IMG/VR virus record: IMGVR_UViG_3300043436_004117
Coordinates: 1-39,207 of that record
Direction: 5' to 3' (one strand)
Origin: a virus
Taxonomy: Duplodnaviria > Caudoviricetes
Length of the DNA: 39,207 nt
Both the position numbers and the translations under genes were made by a program. The notes below the pieces were generated by a model. That model saw only the letters and a list, made by a program, of their open reading frames with translations. It was not told the DNA's origin and ran no database searches. This document shows positions 3,518 through 39,207 of this stretch, in pieces; position 1 is the stretch's first letter, and the number at the start of each line of letters is the position of its first letter.

Positions 3518-3853
3518 CTAGTCGGCAGGTGTGCGGTGCCGCAGAAGGCCTAGTTCATATGAGCGCGCTGGGTTGGCATGGATGTAGTCGTGGTGCGCGC
3601 GGCATACTGCAATCAGGTCTTCGAGAGTGTCTTTGCCTCCCTGCGAACGCATCAATGCGTGGTGCGGATCGATACGACCAGCACACCGCACTTCGGGAAC
3701 GAGGAGTCGAGCGACGCAACCGCCGTCGCGCGCAAGCACCTGTTGATAGACATCCTTGGGCACCGCTTTGGCCTTGGCCTTCATGGGTTTGCCGCGTTTA
3801 AGTGGTGCGGATTGTTTGAGTGGGGTCTTGCGTTGTAGGGGTGAGCGTTTCAT
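3518..3853 (-). CDS. HNH endonuclease
   Basis: RDGGC...DPHH...RSQGG...LIAVCRAHHDYIH; basic N-terminus. Confidence 0.85.
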   Translation of the reverse strand: MKRSPLQRKTPLKQSAPLKRGKPMKAKAKAVPKDVYQQVLARDGGCVARLLVPEVRCAGRIDPHHALMRSQGGKDTLEDLIAVCRAHHDYIHANPARSYELGLLRHRTPAD

Positions 3854-4471
3854 TTAGAAGTTCACCACCTTCATCTCGTCGAGTTGCTCTCTCAGGTTCC
3901 AGTCGTTGTTGTAGCCTGCTCGGTTCCACTCGTATGAGTTGACTGCAATCTTCCATCGCGCTTCGGTGAGTTGCTTTAGGTGTCGATAGAAAATGTGGTC
4001 GTGGGCGTGGTAGCCAAGTGCGTGGACAAGTTCGTGTGCCAAACACTCCCAAGCGTCGACCGTGTCCGTTCCTAGATTGAGTTGAACGCGGTGGCCGCTC
4101 TCGTAATGGCCGCTGGTCGTCTCTCGGTTGCGATTGACAATCTTTATTGATGGCAACCGTCGCTTTCGATTCGGATGCTGTTTCATCAGAATCTTCCAAA
4201 GCCTTACTGCTTCCTTGTCGACATCGAAACCGCATTGTGCAGTCTTGGCATCCGCGGCCTTGGCTCGCTTCGCTTTCTGTTTCTCAGTCGCTTTCAACTT
4301 GGTGGCCTCGCGCTTCTTCTCAAGCGCAGGTGCGGTTCGTTCAACCAGTCGACCAGCCTTCGATGAGCAGGGCAGGCAGTACCTTCGAACATCGTCGCGT
4401 CGAGGTCTTGATGGTGCAAGCACTCCGCTGTTGCAGTTGAGGCACTTCCACCGAACTTGTTTTGTAGCCAT
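3854..4471 (-). CDS. zinc-ribbon plus HExxH metallopeptidase-like protein (SprT/WLM/YgjP-like)
   Basis: CLNC...CLPC zinc ribbon; LAHELVH...HAHDHIFY. Confidence 0.7.
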   Translation of the reverse strand: MATKQVRWKCLNCNSGVLAPSRPRRDDVRRYCLPCSSKAGRLVERTAPALEKKREATKLKATEKQKAKRAKAADAKTAQCGFDVDKEAVRLWKILMKQHPNRKRRLPSIKIVNRNRETTSGHYESGHRVQLNLGTDTVDAWECLAHELVHALGYHAHDHIFYRHLKQLTEARWKIAVNSYEWNRAGYNNDWNLREQLDEMKVVNF

Positions 4472-4500
4472 CTTGATTCCCTTTCTTGTTGGCTAAGGAC

Positions 4501-4529
4501 ATCATAGCCGATTGTGGTCGGCAAATCAA
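4501..4529 (-). promoter_or_regulatory. sigma70-type promoter with dyad in spacer (copy 1)
   Basis: TTGATT-tGCCGACcacaATCGGC-TATGAT, 17-bp spacer. Confidence 0.8.
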
Positions 4530-4539
4530 ATCAGGGTTT

Positions 4540-4960
4540 CATCGCGTTTTTGACAGAGTGCCCCTCCCCATTCGTCAGGGGTAGCCAGTAAGCGACGAAC
4601 GGTTCGAGGTTGAAATGTAAGAGCCGGGTAAGGACAGAGTGCCACAAGAGACCTCTCGGCCTGCTTGCATCCTCCCACGAATTCTGTCGTGTCAGCGTCA
4701 GCCAGTTTCATACGGTGCCAAAGGCCTTATGCCTTGACACTAAGAGACTGGAACCTGTGCTCTCGTTCATCGAGTGACTGGCTCTTGTCGGGACGGCTAA
4801 ATCCCTGCCAGCGACTAAGCGAGTCGCGCACAGGCCGGGCAGTTTGCTCCCATGAGTCGTAACGGATGACCCACCTACTCGCCTGTCCGGGTTTGATGTC
4901 ATCGGGCCTTGCCCGGATCGGTTTCCTTGGTTTGATTCCCTTTTGTCGTTTTTGGACTGG
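4540..4960 (-). ncRNA. candidate large structured non-coding RNA / RNA-primed origin
   Basis: No credible CDS; many hairpins; 11-nt direct repeat; G-tract followed by AAAAACGC; candidate -10 TATGTT at 4963-4968. Confidence 0.5.
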
Positions 4961-5020
4961 CAAACATACCTCGCGAGTGTGCGTGGCTATTTAGGTGCAG
5001 GTGGGTGTTATGCTTTGTCC

Positions 5021-5099
5021 GTCGAGAACATGAGTTTCCTATCTACTTGACAAAGAAAGCCCAGACGGTTCCCCTTTCTCCGTCTGGGCTTTTCTTTTG
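5021..5099 (+). ncRNA. candidate ~80-nt small RNA
   Basis: Extended -10 TGtTATGCT at 5006-5014; ends in hairpin plus U-tract. Confidence 0.4.
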
Positions 5100-5100
5100 T
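5050..5100. terminator. bidirectional intrinsic terminator
   Basis: 13-bp stem AAAGCCCAGACGG/CCGTCTGGGCTTT, 11-nt loop, T-rich tails on both strands. Confidence 0.85.
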
Positions 5101-5111
5101 CTTGGTTTGGT

Positions 5112-5399
5112 TTAGTAGAAGAAGTCTGCGTTGTATTCTGACTGCTCGTATTTTGGGCCTAGTTTCGAACTTGCGTCTTCGAGGTGGGCGTTGACTCTTG
5201 CTATTTCGAATAGTTTTAAGGCTTCGCGTATGCATCCGTCGACAACCCGTTGTTGCAGGTCGAGCGCGCCATCTAGGGGTGGTACATGGCTGTTGGATGG
5301 GTAGTCGTTCCACCAGTCGAGTGGCGGCAGATTGTCGAGTTGGTTTGCGTCGACTTCTATTTCGAGCGTTACTTGGAGGAGGCGAACTTCTCTAGTCAT
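5112..5399 (-). CDS. hypothetical protein (~95 aa)
   Basis: ATG at 5399 overlaps the ERF stop. Confidence 0.65.
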   Translation of the reverse strand: MTREVRLLQVTLEIEVDANQLDNLPPLDWWNDYPSNSHVPPLDGALDLQQRVVDGCIREALKLFEIARVNAHLEDASSKLGPKYEQSEYNADFFY

Positions 5400-6054
5400 C
5401 GGTGCGCACCTTGTCTTCGACCCAAGCGAGCGCGTCGGGATGTTGGCTTGGGTCAAGGTCTGCCAGCGTGCCGTACTTGGCTACGAAGCCCTGCTTAATA
5501 CCTGCCGCGAGGCCGTTCGGTAGTTCTGACAGGATTTCCCTTATGGCCCGTTCCTCTGGCGTTCTAGGCGCTGATGGAGCCTTGGGTGGGGTTGTTGTAC
5601 CACTCGACGGGGTTTGGCGCGTCCTAGGGGCACTGGTGCGCTGTCCTGCGGAAGCCCCGTCGTCGTCCTCGGTTGCTAATCCGAGGCAGGCTTGGAGGTG
5701 GTAACGGCGGCCGTAGGAAATAGCCGATCCCGTTTCCTGCGCGGTTCGGCCCGAAGGCAAAGCCAAAGGCTCGAAACGGAGCCACTCGCCAGAGGTATGA
5801 AGAATCGTTGTGCTAATCAAAACGAACTCTGGGTTGTTGGTGCAGGCGTTTTGCATTACGACTAATCCGTGTTTTGCCAGTATCGGCCTTACGGTTTGAA
5901 TCGTGTCTGCGAGGTCGGCGTATTTGTAACCGTAGTTTCCTCCTGACTTCATTTGCACTTTGGCTTCGCGGCCTTTTTTGATTTCTGTCAAAGCGCCAAG
6001 TGCCGCGACAAGCGCAGGACTTAACTCTTTGATGGATTCGCTACTTTGCCACAT
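5392..6054 (-). CDS. erf: ERF family single-strand annealing protein
   Basis: YKYADLAD...AQETGSAISYGRRY...GLATEDDDG signature; ATG at 6054. Confidence 0.92.
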   Translation of the reverse strand: MWQSSESIKELSPALVAALGALTEIKKGREAKVQMKSGGNYGYKYADLADTIQTVRPILAKHGLVVMQNACTNNPEFVLISTTILHTSGEWLRFEPLALPSGRTAQETGSAISYGRRYHLQACLGLATEDDDGASAGQRTSAPRTRQTPSSGTTTPPKAPSAPRTPEERAIREILSELPNGLAAGIKQGFVAKYGTLADLDPSQHPDALAWVEDKVRTDD

Positions 6055-6565
6055 TGTGTTCTCCCTCGGTGATTGTGACTGTGTATCCAGTAACACGCTT
6101 GGCGCGGTACTCGTCTGGCGCTAGGCCGAGAACTTTGCGGAAGGCCGTCTTCGGATCGGCGGTAAAGGAGAAAGCATCCTGTGTGAGTCGCCATACCTCT
6201 CTCGCGGCGTTCGCTAAAGGTCGGTGCATCTCGCCCGTTGCTGGGTCTACTGCGACGCGTTGAATGATTGCTGAAATAGCGTCTTCCATCATTCGCTCTC
6301 TGCTGGAGTCGTCAATCCAAGTCGACGAAGTTCGCGGTTTGCGCTGTACCAGCCCTACGCCTTGAATCTCTGTTGAGTCGGTTTCCATTCGAGCCGCGAT
6401 ATCTTCTTGAATCTCGTCGGTCATGTATTTGAGCACCGAAGTAAGCGAGTAGCACAAGTCGAGCCGTTTGGCTAACTCTTGCAGGGTTCCTTCGGTTAAG
6501 GATTCAAGAGAGAGAATTTTGGTCTTAAAGACAATCTCCTCAAGTATCTGATTGGTGGTTTCCAT
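6041..6565 (-). CDS. hypothetical protein (recombination module)
   Basis: 174-aa ORF with RBS, overlapping erf. Confidence 0.75.
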   Translation of the reverse strand: METTNQILEEIVFKTKILSLESLTEGTLQELAKRLDLCYSLTSVLKYMTDEIQEDIAARMETDSTEIQGVGLVQRKPRTSSTWIDDSSRERMMEDAISAIIQRVAVDPATGEMHRPLANAAREVWRLTQDAFSFTADPKTAFRKVLGLAPDEYRAKRVTGYTVTITEGEHNVAK

Positions 6566-6622: not shown

Positions 6623-7165
6623 TTATTCGCTGTCAGCCCAACGGTCGGTTGTTACTACTACCACGGCCTCGTCGGTTACTTCCCCGACTGGTATGACCGT
6701 CGCCCAAGCGGTCGCCATGCCGCCTTTGCCTGAAGTGATTACTACGCGCGCTGGTCGCTTCACTTTGCCTTCGAGGTAGCCCTTGGCGAATATTGTGGCT
6801 CGACGCTTTGGGTGCGCTGTAATGAACTCGCCTGTCGCTTTGTTGTCATCGTCCAAAAGCATCCAGCATTCGCCGTACTGCCCGTTAATCAATCGCGCGT
6901 TGACAAGGTTGCCTTTCGTGTCAAATAGTGCAACAAACTCTGCAAGGCCTCCGTCGTCTGCGATTTGCGCTTCTTTGAATAAGCGCTCGGCGCTGAGTCC
7001 GCTTGCCCATTGGCTTATAAAGCCGTCGGTATCGCAACGCTCAAAGGATTCGATCGCGTCTCGTTCCTTTTGGCGTGCCTTCTCGCGCAGTTGGTCTCCT
7101 GTGGTTTTCATAGTGGTTTCCCCTTCGTGGATGGTTGATATTGCTGGTGTTTGGTTGGTTTCCAT
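6623..7165 (-). CDS. conserved actinophage-type hypothetical protein, leaderless
   Basis: ESFERCDTDGFISQWA motif; ATG 6 nt after the -10 of promoter copy 2. Confidence 0.75.
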   Translation of the reverse strand: METNQTPAISTIHEGETTMKTTGDQLREKARQKERDAIESFERCDTDGFISQWASGLSAERLFKEAQIADDGGLAEFVALFDTKGNLVNARLINGQYGECWMLLDDDNKATGEFITAHPKRRATIFAKGYLEGKVKRPARVVITSGKGGMATAWATVIPVGEVTDEAVVVVTTDRWADSE

Positions 7166-7171
7166 GAGGCC

Positions 7172-7200
7172 AGCGTAGCCGACCGAGGTCGGCGTTTCAA
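7172..7200 (-). promoter_or_regulatory. promoter with dyad in spacer (copy 2)
   Basis: TTGAAA-cGCCGACCtcGGTCGGC-TACGCT, perfect dyad. Confidence 0.8.
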
Positions 7201-7214
7201 CTCTTTAGGCGCTT

Positions 7215-7380
7215 TCGCAGATATTGTGCGCCTATCGCGGATTATCAGGGATTATCATCATGATATTGAGCATATTTCGCAGAAAATAGCGAAAAAAGGC
7301 CAAAAACGCCTCAAAAAGCCGAGATATCAGTAAATATCATCAAATATCATCATGATATCGAGCATATTTTTGAGCATTCG
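7215..7380. repeat. ApT-rich phased repeat island A
   Basis: Recurrent ATATCATC/GATAT/GAGCATATTT units at roughly 10-bp spacing. Confidence 0.75.
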
Positions 7381-25524: not shown

Positions 25525-26475
25525 CTACATTTTGTCGAAATTTGTGCAAAGCAAAAAAAGTGACTCTTCAAAGTTGTCGAGAGATTTTGATGGATGCAGT
25601 TCCGCTGAGCGTTTGTAAGCAAGTCCAGATGCAGATGCGTATTCGTCTGGGTTGTTGAGTCTAAGTATTTGCTCCACCCAATCCTCAACGCGACGCGAAG
25701 ATACAAATATGCCAGCGTCACCAAGCGCCTCTTTAAGTCCGACAGTGGGTGAAGCAATCACGGGAATACCAGAAGCAAACGCCTCAACCGCGACCCGACC
25801 GTAGGTTTCTATTTTTGAAGGCATAAGGACAATACGGCTTCGAGAGTAAACCGAGCGCATATCGGTGGTGGTTGACTGTATTTCAACATTCGCTGGTGGT
25901 CTGCTGGACTTAATTTGATGCCCATATGAACCCTCAACTCCAAGAAAAAGATGGTTAGGCAAAGCCTGAACTAGTTGCCAAAAAATGTCACCGCCTTTGT
26001 TCTGGTTCAAATTGACCAGAGTGATGCGCTCTCCGCGTTTAGTTTTGTATTTCACAGGGTCGACAGGAGGCAGAAGCACCAAAGACTCGCTTATTGGTGT
26101 GACTGCTTTTGATGCCCATTCAGAATTGAAAACAGAAAGCAGGCTTCGACATTGTCGCGGTACTTCGGCAGAATATGCCTTCGGATCGTGATTTATGTAA
26201 ACAACTGGACAGCGTTTACTGAAGAAGTGATTGGCGTTATGAGTTGCTGAGGTTTGCGTCAAAACAACATCAGCCCATTCGTAGGCTTCAGTTTCTTTCC
26301 CTGCGTAGACAGGGACGACCTCAATATTCTCAAAAATGGTGAAACTGCGACGCAGGTCAAAGACTCTAACTTCGTGACCTCTGGTTTGCAGGCCAAGGAG
26401 AATTTCATGGAGCATCATCGTTGCCCCTGTGCAGTAGTTAGGTGGATATCCGTCCACCCAAGCGACGATTCTCAC
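25525..26475 (-). CDS. glycosyltransferase, GT4 (GT-B fold)
   Basis: RGHEV, NKGG, ETYGRVAVEAFASGIPVIAS (EX7E). Confidence 0.92.
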   Translation of the reverse strand: MRIVAWVDGYPPNYCTGATMMLHEILLGLQTRGHEVRVFDLRRSFTIFENIEVVPVYAGKETEAYEWADVVLTQTSATHNANHFFSKRCPVVYINHDPKAYSAEVPRQCRSLLSVFNSEWASKAVTPISESLVLLPPVDPVKYKTKRGERITLVNLNQNKGGDIFWQLVQALPNHLFLGVEGSYGHQIKSSRPPANVEIQSTTTDMRSVYSRSRIVLMPSKIETYGRVAVEAFASGIPVIASPTVGLKEALGDAGIFVSSRRVEDWVEQILRLNNPDEYASASGLAYKRSAELHPSKSLDNFEESLFLLCTNFDKM

Positions 26476-28971: not shown

Positions 28972-29631
28972 ATGACTCGCCACCCAATTAGCGTGATGAT
29001 GCCTTATCGCCCAACCCCAAGCAGGAAACCTCTCCAAATTGCTGTCACTAAATGGTGGGAAAGTAACTTCAATATCACCCCAATCAGGTTAGACAGCGCC
29101 CACAAAATCTTTAACCTCGCCGCGGTTAGGAACAAGTGCGTTGACGAAAGCCCTACTGAAATAGTCATCGTGACGGACGCAGACATTATTTGCGAACCAA
29201 AAGCGATCGTTGAAGCAGTTGAGAGTGTGGCCACTACTGGCAATACCTGCGTGCCATACAACAAACATCATGTTTTGACTAATAAAGGAACAAAAAACTA
29301 TCTCAAAGGTCAAGATATCGGCGCACAACCGCACATCGCTTTCGAGAGCACCGATGGTGGCATCGTCGTAACGACGAAGTCAATGTGGCAACGGCACAAC
29401 GGACAAGATGAGAGGTTTGTTGGTTGGGGTGGTGAGGATATTTGTTGGGCTTTGGCATACGAGACCCTCATTGGAACTCTGATAAGACTTGATGCCATCG
29501 CTTGGACAATGCACCACCAACCAGCCCCAAGAAACATCGACGCTGAGAACAAAAACAAACTGAGAACTAGATATGTCGAAGCGCAAGGCGATTTAGCCAA
29601 GATGAGCCAGTTAATTAAGGGCAACAGATAG
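28972..29631 (+). CDS. glycosyltransferase, GT-A fold (GT2/GT7-like)
   Basis: PYR, DAD, GQDERFVGWGGED. Confidence 0.9.
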   Translation: MTRHPISVMMPYRPTPSRKPLQIAVTKWWESNFNITPIRLDSAHKIFNLAAVRNKCVDESPTEIVIVTDADIICEPKAIVEAVESVATTGNTCVPYNKHHVLTNKGTKNYLKGQDIGAQPHIAFESTDGGIVVTTKSMWQRHNGQDERFVGWGGEDICWALAYETLIGTLIRLDAIAWTMHHQPAPRNIDAENKNKLRTRYVEAQGDLAKMSQLIKGNR

Positions 29632-29640
29632 TCTCTCCCC

Positions 29641-30339
29641 ATGATTGATGCAGGCTTTACAGTCACGGTTCCTTGGCGAACCACACCGACAAGAGCACCA
29701 TTATTTGAAGCGTTGACCAATTGGTACAAAGAACATATGGGGCTTGACATTTTTGCCTATGACAGTCCGCAAGTCACCGACGACCTGCACAAACACCAAC
29801 GCCACTTCAATACGGCGGCGTCCCGTAATTACTGCGTCGAACAGTCACCTACTGAGATAGTCGTTATTAACGACGCTGACACGATTCCGAATAAAGATGC
29901 CCTTATTGAGGCGATTGAATATGTAAAGCGGACAGGCCAGACTTGTCTGCCGTACACCAGATACAACATTGTTAATTACGAAGCAACGCGCAAATACCTA
30001 GATGGAGAAGCCATAAGCCCTCGCTCATGCACTATTTACGCCCCTGCGGTCGGTGGGATTCTTGTGACGACTAAGACGATGTGGAACCTTCACAACGGTC
30101 AGGACGAGAGAATGTTTGGGTGGGGCTATCAAGACACCGCATGGCATACGGCCTATGAAACCCTAATTGGCGAGATGCATCGTATTGACGGAGATATTTA
30201 TTCACTGACTCATAAGTTGGCTGAGAGGGGAGCCAATATTGCGAATAACCGAAGTCACTTTCAGCGATATCTAAATGCCAAAGGCAACATCGACGCTATG
30301 GCTTCACTCGTTTCAGGCAACCGTCTGCCAAGAAACTAA
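29641..30339 (+). CDS. glycosyltransferase, GT-A fold (paralogue)
   Basis: PWR, DAD, GQDERMFGWGYQD. Confidence 0.88.
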   Translation: MIDAGFTVTVPWRTTPTRAPLFEALTNWYKEHMGLDIFAYDSPQVTDDLHKHQRHFNTAASRNYCVEQSPTEIVVINDADTIPNKDALIEAIEYVKRTGQTCLPYTRYNIVNYEATRKYLDGEAISPRSCTIYAPAVGGILVTTKTMWNLHNGQDERMFGWGYQDTAWHTAYETLIGEMHRIDGDIYSLTHKLAERGANIANNRSHFQRYLNAKGNIDAMASLVSGNRLPRN

Positions 30340-30820: not shown

Positions 30821-31228
30821 TCAGTATGAGAATGTGTCGTTGTATTTGGCTTGCAGGGCTTTGAGTTCTGCGACCAGAGACTGCCACTCTGTCTGCAAAG
30901 CATCTGAGATGGTGTCTGTGTTGCCTTGTACTATGACGATCTGATACCACTCGTCGGTGTCTCGGCGTGCGTCCATCGCCTCGCCTAGCGCCTTGATTCG
31001 TGCTTTGAGTTCTTCAGCCCAATCGCATGCTTGGCTGTAGGTCGCTTTGATTTCTTGCTCCTCTGCGGTCAAGCACTTGTGGGCAAGTTGCAGGGTCTTT
31101 ATTACGCGCCCGTTTTCGCCTTTAACTTGGGTCGAGTCCGCGTTGGTCAGGTAGTACTTGCCTGCTTTAGAGGTAGCCCAAACGAGGCCTCCCATACCGC
31201 AGTTCTTACAGGTGATGATTTTCTTCAT
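30821..31228 (-). CDS. hypothetical protein with CxxC, leaderless
   Basis: ATG 7 nt after the -10 of promoter copy 3; CKNCG...W...GKYY. Confidence 0.7.
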   Translation of the reverse strand: MKKIITCKNCGMGGLVWATSKAGKYYLTNADSTQVKGENGRVIKTLQLAHKCLTAEEQEIKATYSQACDWAEELKARIKALGEAMDARRDTDEWYQIVIVQGNTDTISDALQTEWQSLVAELKALQAKYNDTFSY

Positions 31229-31235
31229 GGGGTGA

Positions 31236-31264
31236 ACAGTACCCGACCTTGGTTGGCTCATCAA
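31236..31264 (-). promoter_or_regulatory. promoter with dyad in spacer (copy 3)
   Basis: TTGATG-aGCCAACcaagGTCGGG-TACTGT. Confidence 0.75.
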
Positions 31265-31306
31265 CCGTATCCGAGCCAATCCCAAGCACTTATCTGGGAA
31301 GGGATC

Positions 31307-31474: not shown

Positions 31475-31745
31475 TTATGCTCGAACTGCTCGAAAATATC
31501 ATCGAATATCAGCGCATATCTTCGAATATCAGCCAATATCAGCCAATATCGGCAACATATGCTCAAATATCATCGAATATCATCATGAGATTTCGCATAT
31601 CATCAAGATTTCGAGCGTTTTTCAACCGATCGGTGCGATTTCGAGGGCTTTTTCGCAAAATATCATGTTCTCATGCTGGCTCATGTTGAGCAGGTTGCCC
31701 TATTTGGCGCTCATGTTGTTCATATGCCCCTCATGTCGTTCATGT
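31475..31745. repeat. ApT-rich phased repeat island B
   Basis: AATATC units at ~10-bp spacing, followed by TCATG units. Confidence 0.75.
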
Positions 31746-36748: not shown

Positions 36749-36943
36749 TTAGTCGATTTCGATGCCGTTTGCTCCGCAGAGCGAAACTATCTGGGCGAGC
36801 AATCTTGATGATTCTTTGTAGTTGTCCCAATTGGCGTCGGTCTTGGCGTAGTCGTATGCGAGGCGCGTTGCGATGACTTCCTCGTGGGCGGTGACAAGCA
36901 GTGCTTGAAGTTGGGCTCTGGCAGATGTGGTGGTTGTTTTCAT
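36749..36943 (-). CDS. small helical protein, leaderless
   Basis: ATG 7 nt after the -10 of promoter copy 4. Confidence 0.65.
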   Translation of the reverse strand: MKTTTTSARAQLQALLVTAHEEVIATRLAYDYAKTDANWDNYKESSRLLAQIVSLCGANGIEID

Positions 36944-36950
36944 AATCCCC

Positions 36951-36979
36951 ACGATAGCCGACTGTGGTAGGCACATCAA
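36951..36979 (-). promoter_or_regulatory. promoter with dyad in spacer (copy 4)
   Basis: TTGATG-tGCCTACcacaGTCGGC-TATCGT. Confidence 0.78.
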
Positions 36980-37192
36980 CTAGCGCCTCCTTGAGCCAAG
37001 GGCTAGAAAGGCGCGGTCAAAGGCCAGCGACGATCGTTCCTCGTTGATTACGGCTCTGGCCTCGTCGGGTGTGGATAGCCCCTCCGCGATTGGGTGGGCG
37101 TCTGGGTGGGCGTGGACATCGTAGTAGCCGTCAAAGCACCAGATTATGAAGCCTCGATAATTCCAGCGTTGCCCGTCGTAGTGCTTGCTCAT
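36980..37192 (-). CDS. hypothetical protein (~70 aa)
   Basis: ATGA coupling; YRGFII motif. Confidence 0.65.
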   Translation of the reverse strand: MSKHYDGQRWNYRGFIIWCFDGYYDVHAHPDAHPIAEGLSTPDEARAVINEERSSLAFDRAFLALGSRRR

Positions 37193-37389: not shown

Positions 37390-37751
37390 TTGCCTGCCTT
37401 GAGTGAATCAACTGCGGCGTACAAGCGGTCGAGGACTTCTTCAGGCTCCGACCAATTGTGGTCTGGGCAATAGAAGTATGAGAATGCCTCTGCAAAGGCT
37501 TCTATGACATCTGGCAGTGCTTCTTTCTTGGTCTTGAATCGTGTGCGCCATCGCTTTAGGTGAGCAAGGTTTAATCCGAACTGTGCGCACCACTCTTCAA
37601 TCGGCGTGCCGTGAATTGTTACCGCGCTGATTTCCCAATGGCTGACCCTCTCATTCACGGTATGCACAGGTGCGTTCTGGTTTTCGTGGCTGGACTTGAC
37701 CAATTCAATCGCGATTGCGTTGGTGGCTAGTTCTAGGTAGTTGGTTTCCAT
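37386..37751 (-). CDS. hypothetical protein, leaderless
   Basis: ATG 7 nt after the -10 of promoter copy 5. Confidence 0.7.
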   Translation of the reverse strand: METNYLELATNAIAIELVKSSHENQNAPVHTVNERVSHWEISAVTIHGTPIEEWCAQFGLNLAHLKRWRTRFKTKKEALPDVIEAFAEAFSYFYCPDHNWSEPEEVLDRLYAAVDSLKAGK

Positions 37752-37758
37752 AGTTCCG

Positions 37759-37787
37759 AGAGTAGCCGATTGGAGTCGGCACATCAA
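37759..37787 (-). promoter_or_regulatory. promoter with dyad in spacer (copy 5)
   Basis: TTGATG-tGCCGACtccaATCGGC-TACTCT. Confidence 0.8.
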
Positions 37788-37829
37788 CCCAATGTGGCTG
37801 GGTTGCCTTGGGCTACGGACAAATCGGCG

Positions 37830-38359: not shown

Positions 38360-38720
38360 CATGGTGATATCACGCTGACACTCTGCATAATCTTTGATAA
38401 TCAGCGATACTTCTCGCCTTTTTGCTTGGTTTCGCTACTTTTTGGCGAAATATGCTCAATATCATGATGATATGCGATGATATTTAACAGATTATTCAAG
38501 GTTTATCGAGGTTTACCGAGATTATTCAGGGTTATCAGGGAGTTTCGCAGAGTTATTTGAAGTTATGCTCGCATATTTTGAGCATCACTCTGATTATTTG
38601 AGATTATTCGAGATTATTCGAGATTATTCGAGATTATTTAGCGTTATTTAGGGTTATTTGAGATTATTCGAGATTATTTGGGGTTATTTCGAGATAACTC
38701 CGATTATCTGAGATTATTTC
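38360..38720. repeat. ApT-rich island D with 10-bp tandem repeat
   Basis: About 13 degenerate units of AGATTATTCG at 38591-38720. Confidence 0.85.
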
Positions 38721-39207
38721 TAAATAATCCGTCGATGGACAGGCGACTGTACCGACGCCTTTTGCATCGGCTGGGGAGGAAGCAAAGTGGCGATGCAATG
38801 AACAAGGGCGTCCATACGGTCTGGCGACTTGCCTTCGCCGGGAACGAACGAAGTCATCTGGACTTCGAGCATCGGGAAGAATCCAGCGTGGTGTATCAGG
38901 CCTCGTTCGTAGAGCGCCGATATCGGTTCGGCTCGTGCGCCCTTGCTCTGTTTGGCGGTTATTTTGTCGACGCGCAGGTTTGGGTCAACCGCGTGGATGG
39001 TGGCTCGAACCATGTCGCCACCTTGATTCGATTCGACCACGACGCGCTCGGCGTTCCATTTGCGTGCGGTAGAGGCCACTCGTGCGCCCCATTCCTCTGG
39101 CCTGCCTGCGGTGCTGGCGTCCTCTAGTACCACAGCGCGGTCAATACCCGATCGCCCTTGGACTGGTGCCATAGCGACGACGATTCCGCATTCGGCGGTT
39201 TCTCCCG
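38720..39207 (-). CDS. terL: terminase large subunit, C-terminal nuclease domain (5' truncated by window)
   Basis: GIVVA, VESNQGG, KGARAEPI, SPDRMDALV; frame open to the window edge. Confidence 0.92.
   Translation of the reverse strand, partial: GETAECGIVVAMAPVQGRSGIDRAVVLEDASTAGRPEEWGARVASTARKWNAERVVVESNQGGDMVRATIHAVDPNLRVDKITAKQSKGARAEPISALYERGLIHHAGFFPMLEVQMTSFVPGEGKSPDRMDALVHCIATLLPPQPMQKASVQSPVHRRII

Follow-up and report, generated by a model that had tools for sequence, protein, structure and literature searches.

A large structured non-coding element apparently replaces the replication-initiator gene in a phage group and is probably an RNA-based origin

In a group of related freshwater phages, genome comparison indicated that a conserved, structured, non-coding element apparently replaces the gene of the replication initiator, and we proposed that this element is probably an RNA-based phage origin. 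The element lies on the minus strand of a 39.2-kb virus record (hereafter the window, that is, the whole stretch of DNA analyzed), the completeness of which was estimated at 74% by CheckV. RNA-based initiation has been described in two kinds of plasmid, ColE1 and MRB, and in mycobacteriophage prophages of the plasmid-like type (PMC5043065, PMC3035462, and PMC7157519). The present element represents an uncatalogued RNA family with a fold supported by covariation, and it swaps one-for-one with a lambda-O-like initiator in phages in which no integrase was found. If this reading is correct, some tailed phages would run their growth cycle from an RNA origin without a replication protein of their own, which would also explain some phage genomes with no recognizable replication gene.

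A conserved non-coding element in the early operon

The window phage contains portal, capsid, tail, and terminase genes, and its early operon, on the minus strand, runs in the order Erf, a 114-aa ORF, a terminator-like hairpin, the element, a promoter, a 205-aa ORF (for whose product no relative was found), HNH, a methyltransferase, and an HTH protein. Two genes recognized by profile matches served as landmarks of the slot that holds the element: that of an Erf-like ssDNA-annealing protein upstream (5392–6096, minus strand) and that of an HNH endonuclease downstream (3518–3853, minus strand). Because the window capsid matched mostly those of actinobacteriophages (30–36% identity) and relatives of the window phage encode WhiB-like factors, the host is likely to be actinobacterial. 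The public runs in which the window is best represented are lake, wastewater, and unlabelled metagenomes, and there were no RNA runs among the public runs listed as containing it.

The conserved core, ~370–375 nt of predicted RNA at 4546–4915 (minus strand), was supported by full-length nhmmer and cmsearch matches in seven loci and by covariation. As the preliminary description had claimed, the element lies between a terminator and the next promoter. Upstream, a terminator-like hairpin (5049–5099, minus strand), with a 13-bp stem (5056–5068/5080–5092) and a U-rich tail, closes the Erf operon; it was recognized from the sequence and not listed by the consensus scan, and such a hairpin also precedes the element in the homologues and the initiator gene in the related genome G005. 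Downstream, the phage promoter TTGATT-17-TATGAT (4501–4529, minus strand), found by the consensus scan, bounds the element. A candidate −10 box, TATGTT (4963–4968, minus strand), with no clear −35, was taken as part of the inferred promoter of the element. By eye, TAnnnT-type hexamers were also seen 20–35 nt before a purine tract in L002, L004, L027, L059, and L028, and before the rep gene of G005. This Shine–Dalgarno-like tract (4937–4943, minus strand) is present upstream of all nine sequences compared, with no conserved start codon behind it, and in G005 the same tract is followed by the rep ATG; it may be the remnant of a ribosome-binding site that served the displaced initiator gene, or it may form part of a 5' hairpin. 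On the plus strand, no sigma-70 consensus promoter was found in 4200–5600, a kind of scan that actinobacterial and phage promoters can escape. As a separate observation, the downstream promoter is one of five copies (4486–4530, 7157–7201, 31221–31265, 36936–36980, and 37744–37788) of family D2, a 45-nt motif that resembles a promoter/operator and contains an inverted repeat; the element is also flanked by D2-like motifs in L141 and L142, one of them within the upstream hairpin loop.

All motifs listed in the preliminary description were found on the minus strand where it had placed them: besides TATGTT, these are AGCCAGT (4777–4783), ACTGGCT (4700–4706 and 4583–4589), the direct repeat GGCACTCTGTC (4633–4643 and 4552–4562), and a 3' end made of TTCGTC (4594–4599) and GACGAA (4571–4576), GGGGAGGGG (4561–4569), 9 nt, and AAAAACGC (4544–4551). 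The two alternative ACTGGCT partners proposed for AGCCAGT are present in the window, but no homologue keeps an ACTGGCT copy (0/6), and 4702–4706 covaries with 4747–4751; a 7-mer with two perfect partners arose in 173/1000 shuffles. Similarly, the 11-nt direct repeat is present at both sites (19/1000 shuffles) but is not conserved in the homologues.

Seven full-length homologues (L002, L004, L027, L059, L140, L141, and L142) were identified by nhmmer and cmsearch, and together with the window they form a set of eight sequences. The first copies came from loci around Erf relatives, L027 and L059 came from motif scans, and a sequence-only model run over 38 records matched eight of them, six at full length, adding G006, G008, and G009. 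Pairwise identity was 76–98% within pairs or groups and 48–57% between lineages, and the gene downstream of the element varied. Exact-pattern scans, which miss diverged copies such as L140–L142, gave 24 matches in viral sequences, of which four were full-length (in three contigs, one counted twice via its terminal overlap) and one was L028, from a fragment of a large phage; 1/16 matches in metagenomes and 0/7 in GTDB genomes were full-length, and the remaining matches were mostly due to chance, inside genes. In run X10, two short contigs cover the element alone, without flanks. Several candidates were rejected: HTH-related and distant Erf-related loci, which belong to other phage groups, do not carry the element; a second partial match in G009 falls in a reading frame; and a short match in G028 (E 0.013) was treated as chance.

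The homologues differ by frame-breaking indels, and single-base indels were seen both between homologues and in public contigs. In addition, there is no sense frame that stays open across all homologues; these two properties together show that the element is not coding, which upholds the earlier claim that it contains no credible CDS. On the basis of these alignments, we regard the element as real and non-coding. The window gave no Rfam match at the gathering score, and at E up to 5 over 4300–5200 there were four weak matches, none within the element; among the Rfam families, ARRPOF, PAGEV, GEBRO, GOLLD, ROOL, RNase P, tmRNA, intron, ribozyme, and riboswitch families did not match it. A blastn search with the element found nothing meaningful in GenBank phages or plasmids (72,556 plasmids), and an exact 26-nt pattern from its 3' end was absent from viral contigs. 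Neither this RNA nor any RNA that takes the place of an O-like initiator in an integrase-less phage was described in the literature searched, mainly open-access. Four short motifs of the element were absent from three supplementary files of PMC10690425; since the candidates there are at most 151 nt, fragments of the RNA could be in its other supplementary files. The element represents an uncatalogued large structured family of predicted RNA: the absence of an Rfam match, the seven full-length homologues, and their compensatory changes agree with the suggestion of a large, structured, unclassified non-coding element.

Single-sequence folding of the window element was no stronger than chance (z = −1.06; 17/100 shuffles as stable) and was likewise not significant for L027 (z −1.31), L059 (−0.45), L140 (−0.81), and L141 (+0.86); it was significant for L002 (z −2.73) and L028 (z −3.81). 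The element stands above chance because of its seven full-length homologues with compensatory changes. The preliminary description had held that homologues without covariation would speak against it. In the unfitted MAFFT alignment A8, 90.8% of 358 cells were paired and 30/46 pairs showed two-sided changes; none of 500 shuffles scored as high, and slid controls were 37–47% paired, with the qualification that the structure was derived from the same, related sequences, which favors it over slid controls, and that pairing figures are not probabilities. In an arm-swap test, the arms of each sequence were paired with their own or with other sequences' partner arms (seven sequences, L004 being dropped as a near-duplicate; six for P6). 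Own and swapped arms formed, respectively, 5.0 and 3.7 pairs in P1, 4.0 and 3.0 in P3, 4.7 and 3.6 in P6, 5.0 and 3.5 in P7, 6.0 and 4.6 in basal P8, and 2.9 and 1.8 in apical P8; at the 3' helices there was little difference (P9, 4.9 and 4.6; P10, 3.7 and 3.6).

The predicted fold, read on the minus strand, begins with P1, a 5-bp hairpin with a 3-nt loop (4903–4915; 4915–4911/4907–4903), in which 5/5 pairs form in 7/7 sequences and three show two-sided changes. Near-invariant 5' motifs follow, together with the short helix P2 (4867–4903; 4898–4895/4875–4872), which is weaker than the other helices, with one-sided changes only and one mismatch. The long-range helix P3 (4624–4890; 4890–4877 with 4640–4624) encloses the central domain, with its outer 4 bp formed in 7/7 sequences and two-sided changes at 8/11 pairs; its 5' strand sits in the P2 loop, a predicted pseudoknot. 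Within this domain, P5 (4754–4834; 4834–4828/4760–4754; two-sided changes at 7/7 pairs) closes a variable multi-branch domain, and P6 (4751–4747/4706–4702; own arms 4.67/5 paired, swapped 3.57) carries a variable distal hairpin at 4740–4715 (together 4702–4751). Public contigs from runs X3, X4, and X10 contain two double compensatory changes, 4721/4735 and 4722/4734, paired by eye. A near-invariant linker motif then leads to P7 (4676–4704; 4691–4687/4680–4676), with 5/5 pairs in 7/7 sequences if a 2-nt loop shift is allowed (swapped 3.45), and to the P8 hairpin (4643–4669), with 6/6 basal pairs in 7/7 sequences, two-sided changes at 7/10 pairs, and an invariant GAGA (GNRA) tetraloop at 4657–4654. 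The one-sided changes go through G·U on the minus strand; these wobbles and the invariant GAGA loop fit an element that would be an RNA with the same orientation as the operon. According to the available text of PMC5737381, comparative methods cannot tell RNA from ssDNA.

L028, in a fragment of the large phage G004, which has a ribonucleotide reductase and a sigma factor, is a likely remote homologue as judged from its sequence and predicted helices. It matched the 5' part of the element at E 7e-5 in the 38-record model run and at E 3e-4 in a later search, scores that are not independent, the locus having been found via the 5' motif. With a separate P7–P8 model, the best match had the position and strand expected of a homologue, and all of its helices were paired (E 0.32). 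L028 keeps the 5' motifs, a P3-like long helix, P7, and P8, but its 3' end differs and does not include the G-tract module. Its element follows an evident sigma-70-type promoter where the strand switches between divergent operons, and no replication genes were seen beside it in G004. We also observed that L028 3855–4427 is a strongly folded, ORF-free gap of ~570 nt (z −3.81).

Alternation with a lambda-O-like initiator gene

We addressed the distribution of the element in a group defined by capsid identity of at least 55%, which comprised 15 records and the window (16 in total), 10 of which include the early region; six capsid-related fragments were dropped from the count, being without Erf (6/6) and HNH (5/5 tested). 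Seven of the 10 (the window, G001, G002, G003, G006, G008, and G009) have the element and no phrog_270/HTH_36 initiator. A lambda-O-like initiator without the element is found in three (G005, G013, and G016), and there is no record that has both or lacks both. The initiator without the element is also the state of the more distant G017 and G018. In the window, phrog_270 gave no match over its 53 ORFs, and HTH_36 gave none in a six-frame search. The G005 record is complete and has terminal repeats. Its genes run from Erf via two small genes and a terminator to the 206-aa initiator (phrog_270, E 1.4e-15; HTH_36 above cut-off), followed by HNH and HTH, and the initiator stands behind a −10-like box and a purine tract resembling those before the element. 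The element occupies this slot, between Erf and HNH, in the window, G001, G002, G003, G006, and G008; gene order is rearranged in G009 (element away from Erf) and in G016 (initiator), and the same-slot match concerns G005 and G013 only, with G013 ending just upstream of its initiator. The preliminary description had placed the element where replication genes would be expected, and it is indeed this slot that the initiator of the relatives fills. Taken together, these comparisons indicate that the element apparently replaces the replication-initiator gene in this phage group. By eye, short direct repeats were noticed in the middle of the G005 initiator gene (L110 15600–15660), as expected for the iterons of a lambda-like origin.

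No family of initiators, primases, helicases, or polymerases matched among the 53 window ORFs scanned. The preliminary description had likewise seen no replication protein in the window and had held that a conventional initiator in the missing part of the genome would speak against an origin role; its observation extends to the near-complete carriers, in which we found no conventional initiator either. Terminal overlaps are present in G001, G002, G005, and G009, and G003, G006, G008, and G016 are near-complete as judged from gene order only. The stretch of G003 that is missing from the window encodes methylases, a nuclease, a transglycosylase, and the small terminase, and no replication family. 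Among the carrier ORFs selected (93 and 89 for PHROGs, 44 for Pfam; the selection passed over most structural ORFs and those homologous to window ORFs), no replication protein was found. The AAA_25 helicase/primase family matched 1/17 records, a distant non-carrier, and no carrier; matches to phrog_864, "DNA primase," fall on methyltransferase domains and were rejected. Since many small ORFs belong to no family, an unrecognized initiator in the carriers is possible. Among 2343 ORFs, there was no early-region ORF that co-segregates with the element: only one ORF matched all seven carriers without matching G005 or G016, and that one is a shadow frame antisense to the MuF gene.

On the capsid tree, in which the group is not resolved, the carriers form about five lineages and the initiator-bearers two, the capsids of G005 and G013 being identical; the exclusion thus rests on few independent events. 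The window Erf is 57% identical to that of G005 and 48–54% identical to those of five of the six other carriers, and these identities suggest module exchange in the group. Cumulative GC skew had no consistent extremum at the slot.

The 3' end and comparison with known RNA origins

The 3' module (4566–4602, minus strand) has two overlapping predicted folds, P9 (4602–4594/4576–4568) or P10 (4581–4578/4569–4566), and we infer that it may be a switch that hides or frees the G-tract. A P9-type hairpin is in the minimum-energy fold of 7/8 3' ends; P10 is 87–91% paired, with one pair showing a two-sided change, and there is little covariation in either helix. The 3' end also keeps a short invariant motif. 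It closes (4546–4569, minus strand) with the G-tract (4569–4561), a small last hairpin (4562–4552), and AAAAAC (4551–4546), which are candidates for an RNA–DNA hybrid and a primer end. The preliminary description had called this end ColE1-like, and the likeness held in part: the G-tract is present in 8/8 sequences and the small last hairpin is general, but AAAAAC is kept in 2/8 (the window and L027 only). A possible H-type pseudoknot between P9 and the G-tract was rejected by eye, as its linker would be ~2 nt.

The closest precedent is provided by the RNA origins of cluster A mycobacteriophages. According to the available parts of PMC7157519, the prophages of this cluster have non-coding transcribed origins that alternate with RepA and are dispensable for lytic growth; those without RepA are found in Alma, LadyBird, RedRock, Gladiator, and Et2Brutus, and 400–500 bp were deleted as the ori. 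Both systems belong to phages of actinobacteria, the likely hosts here, and involve a non-coding region of similar size that alternates with a Rep gene among close relatives. However, the mycobacteriophage ori lies beside parABS and serves a plasmid prophage, whereas the element is flanked by Erf and HNH, and the displaced gene is RepA there and a lambda-O-like HTH_36 initiator of the early operon here. No ParA was found among the scanned ORFs, and ParB-like domains occur in the methylase region only. Because no tyrosine integrase was found in the group (9/9 records), an RNA origin here would probably serve lytic growth. On the ori of Alma, RedRock, and Gladiator (three of the five), the element model R1 scored at most 7.5 bits, with matches that lie beyond the ori intervals or at their edge, and neither R2 nor nhmmer matched. 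As an aside, these three ori regions (L157–L159) align with long invariant blocks and paired segments and might constitute a separate family of structured RNA; towards their far end there is a short word similar to the 3' motif of the element, probably by chance.

Replication from the ColE1 RNA II pre-primer is described in the accessible portions of PMC5043065, PMC8683028, and PMC6380287. As in ColE1, no initiator encoded by the element was found (7/7 carriers), and a long folded strand ends in a hairpin, a G-tract, and a small hairpin; the primer end in the ColE1 record is G6, 12 nt, and AAAAAC, and an AAAAAC run at similar spacing is shared by the 2/8 copies only. Models R1 and R2 did not match the ColE1 record at a meaningful E, so a relationship by sequence was not borne out. 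In addition, the element measures ~410 nt, counted from its candidate promoter, compared with 550 in ColE1, a sigma-70 consensus scan found no antisense promoter here, and the element belongs to a phage and ColE1 is a gamma-proteobacterial plasmid. The MRB marine RNA-based plasmids (PMC3035462, in part) and the ARRPOF, GEBRO, and PAGEV motifs (PMC5737381, in part) resemble the element as structured non-coding motifs of 220–350 nt tied to Rep-independent replicons, but they are plasmid elements of other phyla, and the element has no Rfam match. GOLLD and ROOL, as far as the available text of PMC5737381 describes them, are likewise large multi-stem non-coding RNAs with long-range pairing in phage genomes; unlike them, the element is shorter, has neither an Rfam match nor tRNA neighbors, and strictly alternates with an initiator gene. 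At best, the element works like the RNA-origin systems, and it is a member of none.

Models for the function of the element

We consider it likely that the element has a role of some kind in replication initiation, and, on analysis of the evidence above, we lean towards a cis-acting RNA origin that would prime via an R-loop and use the host enzymes RNase H and Pol I. Transcription of the element by the RNA polymerase of the host would begin at the promoter near 4968, and the transcript would fold into the P1–P8 scaffold with its long-range helix P3. The 3' module would then free the G-tract (4569–4561), and a persistent RNA–DNA hybrid would be held on the template. In this scheme, host RNase H would cleave the RNA near 4550 to leave a primer for host DNA polymerase I, and PriA and DnaB of the host would subsequently load on the displaced strand. 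Phage Erf may serve later, recombination-driven rounds. In ColE1, PriA and DnaB load on the displaced strand, and T4 R-loop origins are a further precedent. RNase H cleavage of the RNA primer followed by Pol I extension is established for ColE1 (PMC5043065, available parts). The origin role via a folded RNA primer, as first suggested from the likeness to ColE1, has gained a stronger argument in the exclusion of the initiator and the shared slot, but has lost part of its original one, with AAAAAC in 2/8 copies and no homology to RNA II.

The poor conservation of the A-run, together with the likely remote homologue in G004 that has no G-tract module, counts against a primer, and so does the P1–P8 scaffold, which is more elaborate than a primer needs. 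The first two of these facts would suit a folded strand that is a scaffold and not a primer, either as an RNA that recruits host helicase or primase to its own locus, in the role of the O protein, or as hairpins on displaced DNA that act as a primosome-assembly site or single-strand origin: it would show the same exclusion with the initiator, the long invariant unpaired motifs resemble protein-binding or tertiary contacts, and what L028 keeps is the 5' motifs, P3, P7, and P8, not the G-tract end. Comparative methods do not separate its RNA and ssDNA forms (PMC5737381, in the text available), but the invariant GNRA loop, the many one-sided changes through G·U, and the promoter-like box upstream fit RNA better, and all eight small-phage copies retain the G-tract; we consider such a scaffold unlikely.

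We also regard as improbable a stand-alone large phage RNA comparable to GOLLD and ROOL, whose function would have nothing to do with replication and which would have moved as a cassette into the slot, replication being carried out by an unrecognized protein or by Erf recombination with host PriA. Such an RNA could well have the ornate multi-domain fold seen here and a likely remote homologue in an unrelated large phage, between divergent operons, and it would agree with the element being away from Erf in G009 and with the many unannotated ORFs. It would nevertheless leave unexplained why the initiator is missing in all seven carriers and present in all three non-carriers; moreover, no substitute protein co-segregates with the element, and the window contains no tRNA or tmRNA gene (0 by ARAGORN).

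Quite improbable, in our assessment, is that the RNA itself is the initiator and takes over the task of the lambda-O-like protein of sister phages, opening its own locus and recruiting host helicase or primase via its invariant loops with no Pol I primer step, as a portable lytic-replication module that reaches even G004. A cis-regulatory leader, attenuator, or self-splicing insert for the downstream gene, or a small coding gene, would fit the operon context behind a ribosome-binding-like tract, the two alternative 3' folds, and the short ORFs of 61–78 aa that overlap the element, but is very improbable given a downstream gene that varies, a phage promoter-type motif directly after the element in the window, L141, and L142, single-base indels with no frame open across homologues, and riboswitch, intron, and ribozyme families without a match.

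Three AT-rich arrays with a 10-nt period (window 38482–38723, 31494–31602, and 7243–7369), partly inverted copies of one another, were considered as an alternative origin and rejected, a period-10 array being absent from the other eight related genomes; they are possibly phased protein-binding or bent-DNA sites. Elsewhere in the window, a MuF head-morphogenesis protein is fused to an ADP-ribosyltransferase domain (PF04233 and PF03496; 31809–33311, minus strand), and glycosyltransferase genes lie among the head genes (25525–26475, minus strand, and 28972–30339, plus strand), two on the opposite strand. The relatives carry variable DNA-modification cassettes, with QueC/QueD/QueE, tRNA-ribosyltransferase-like, amino acid:DNA transferase, and Mom-like genes, located at L166 8420–11250 (G009), L162 2063–4452 (G006), and L164 4531–6554 (G008).
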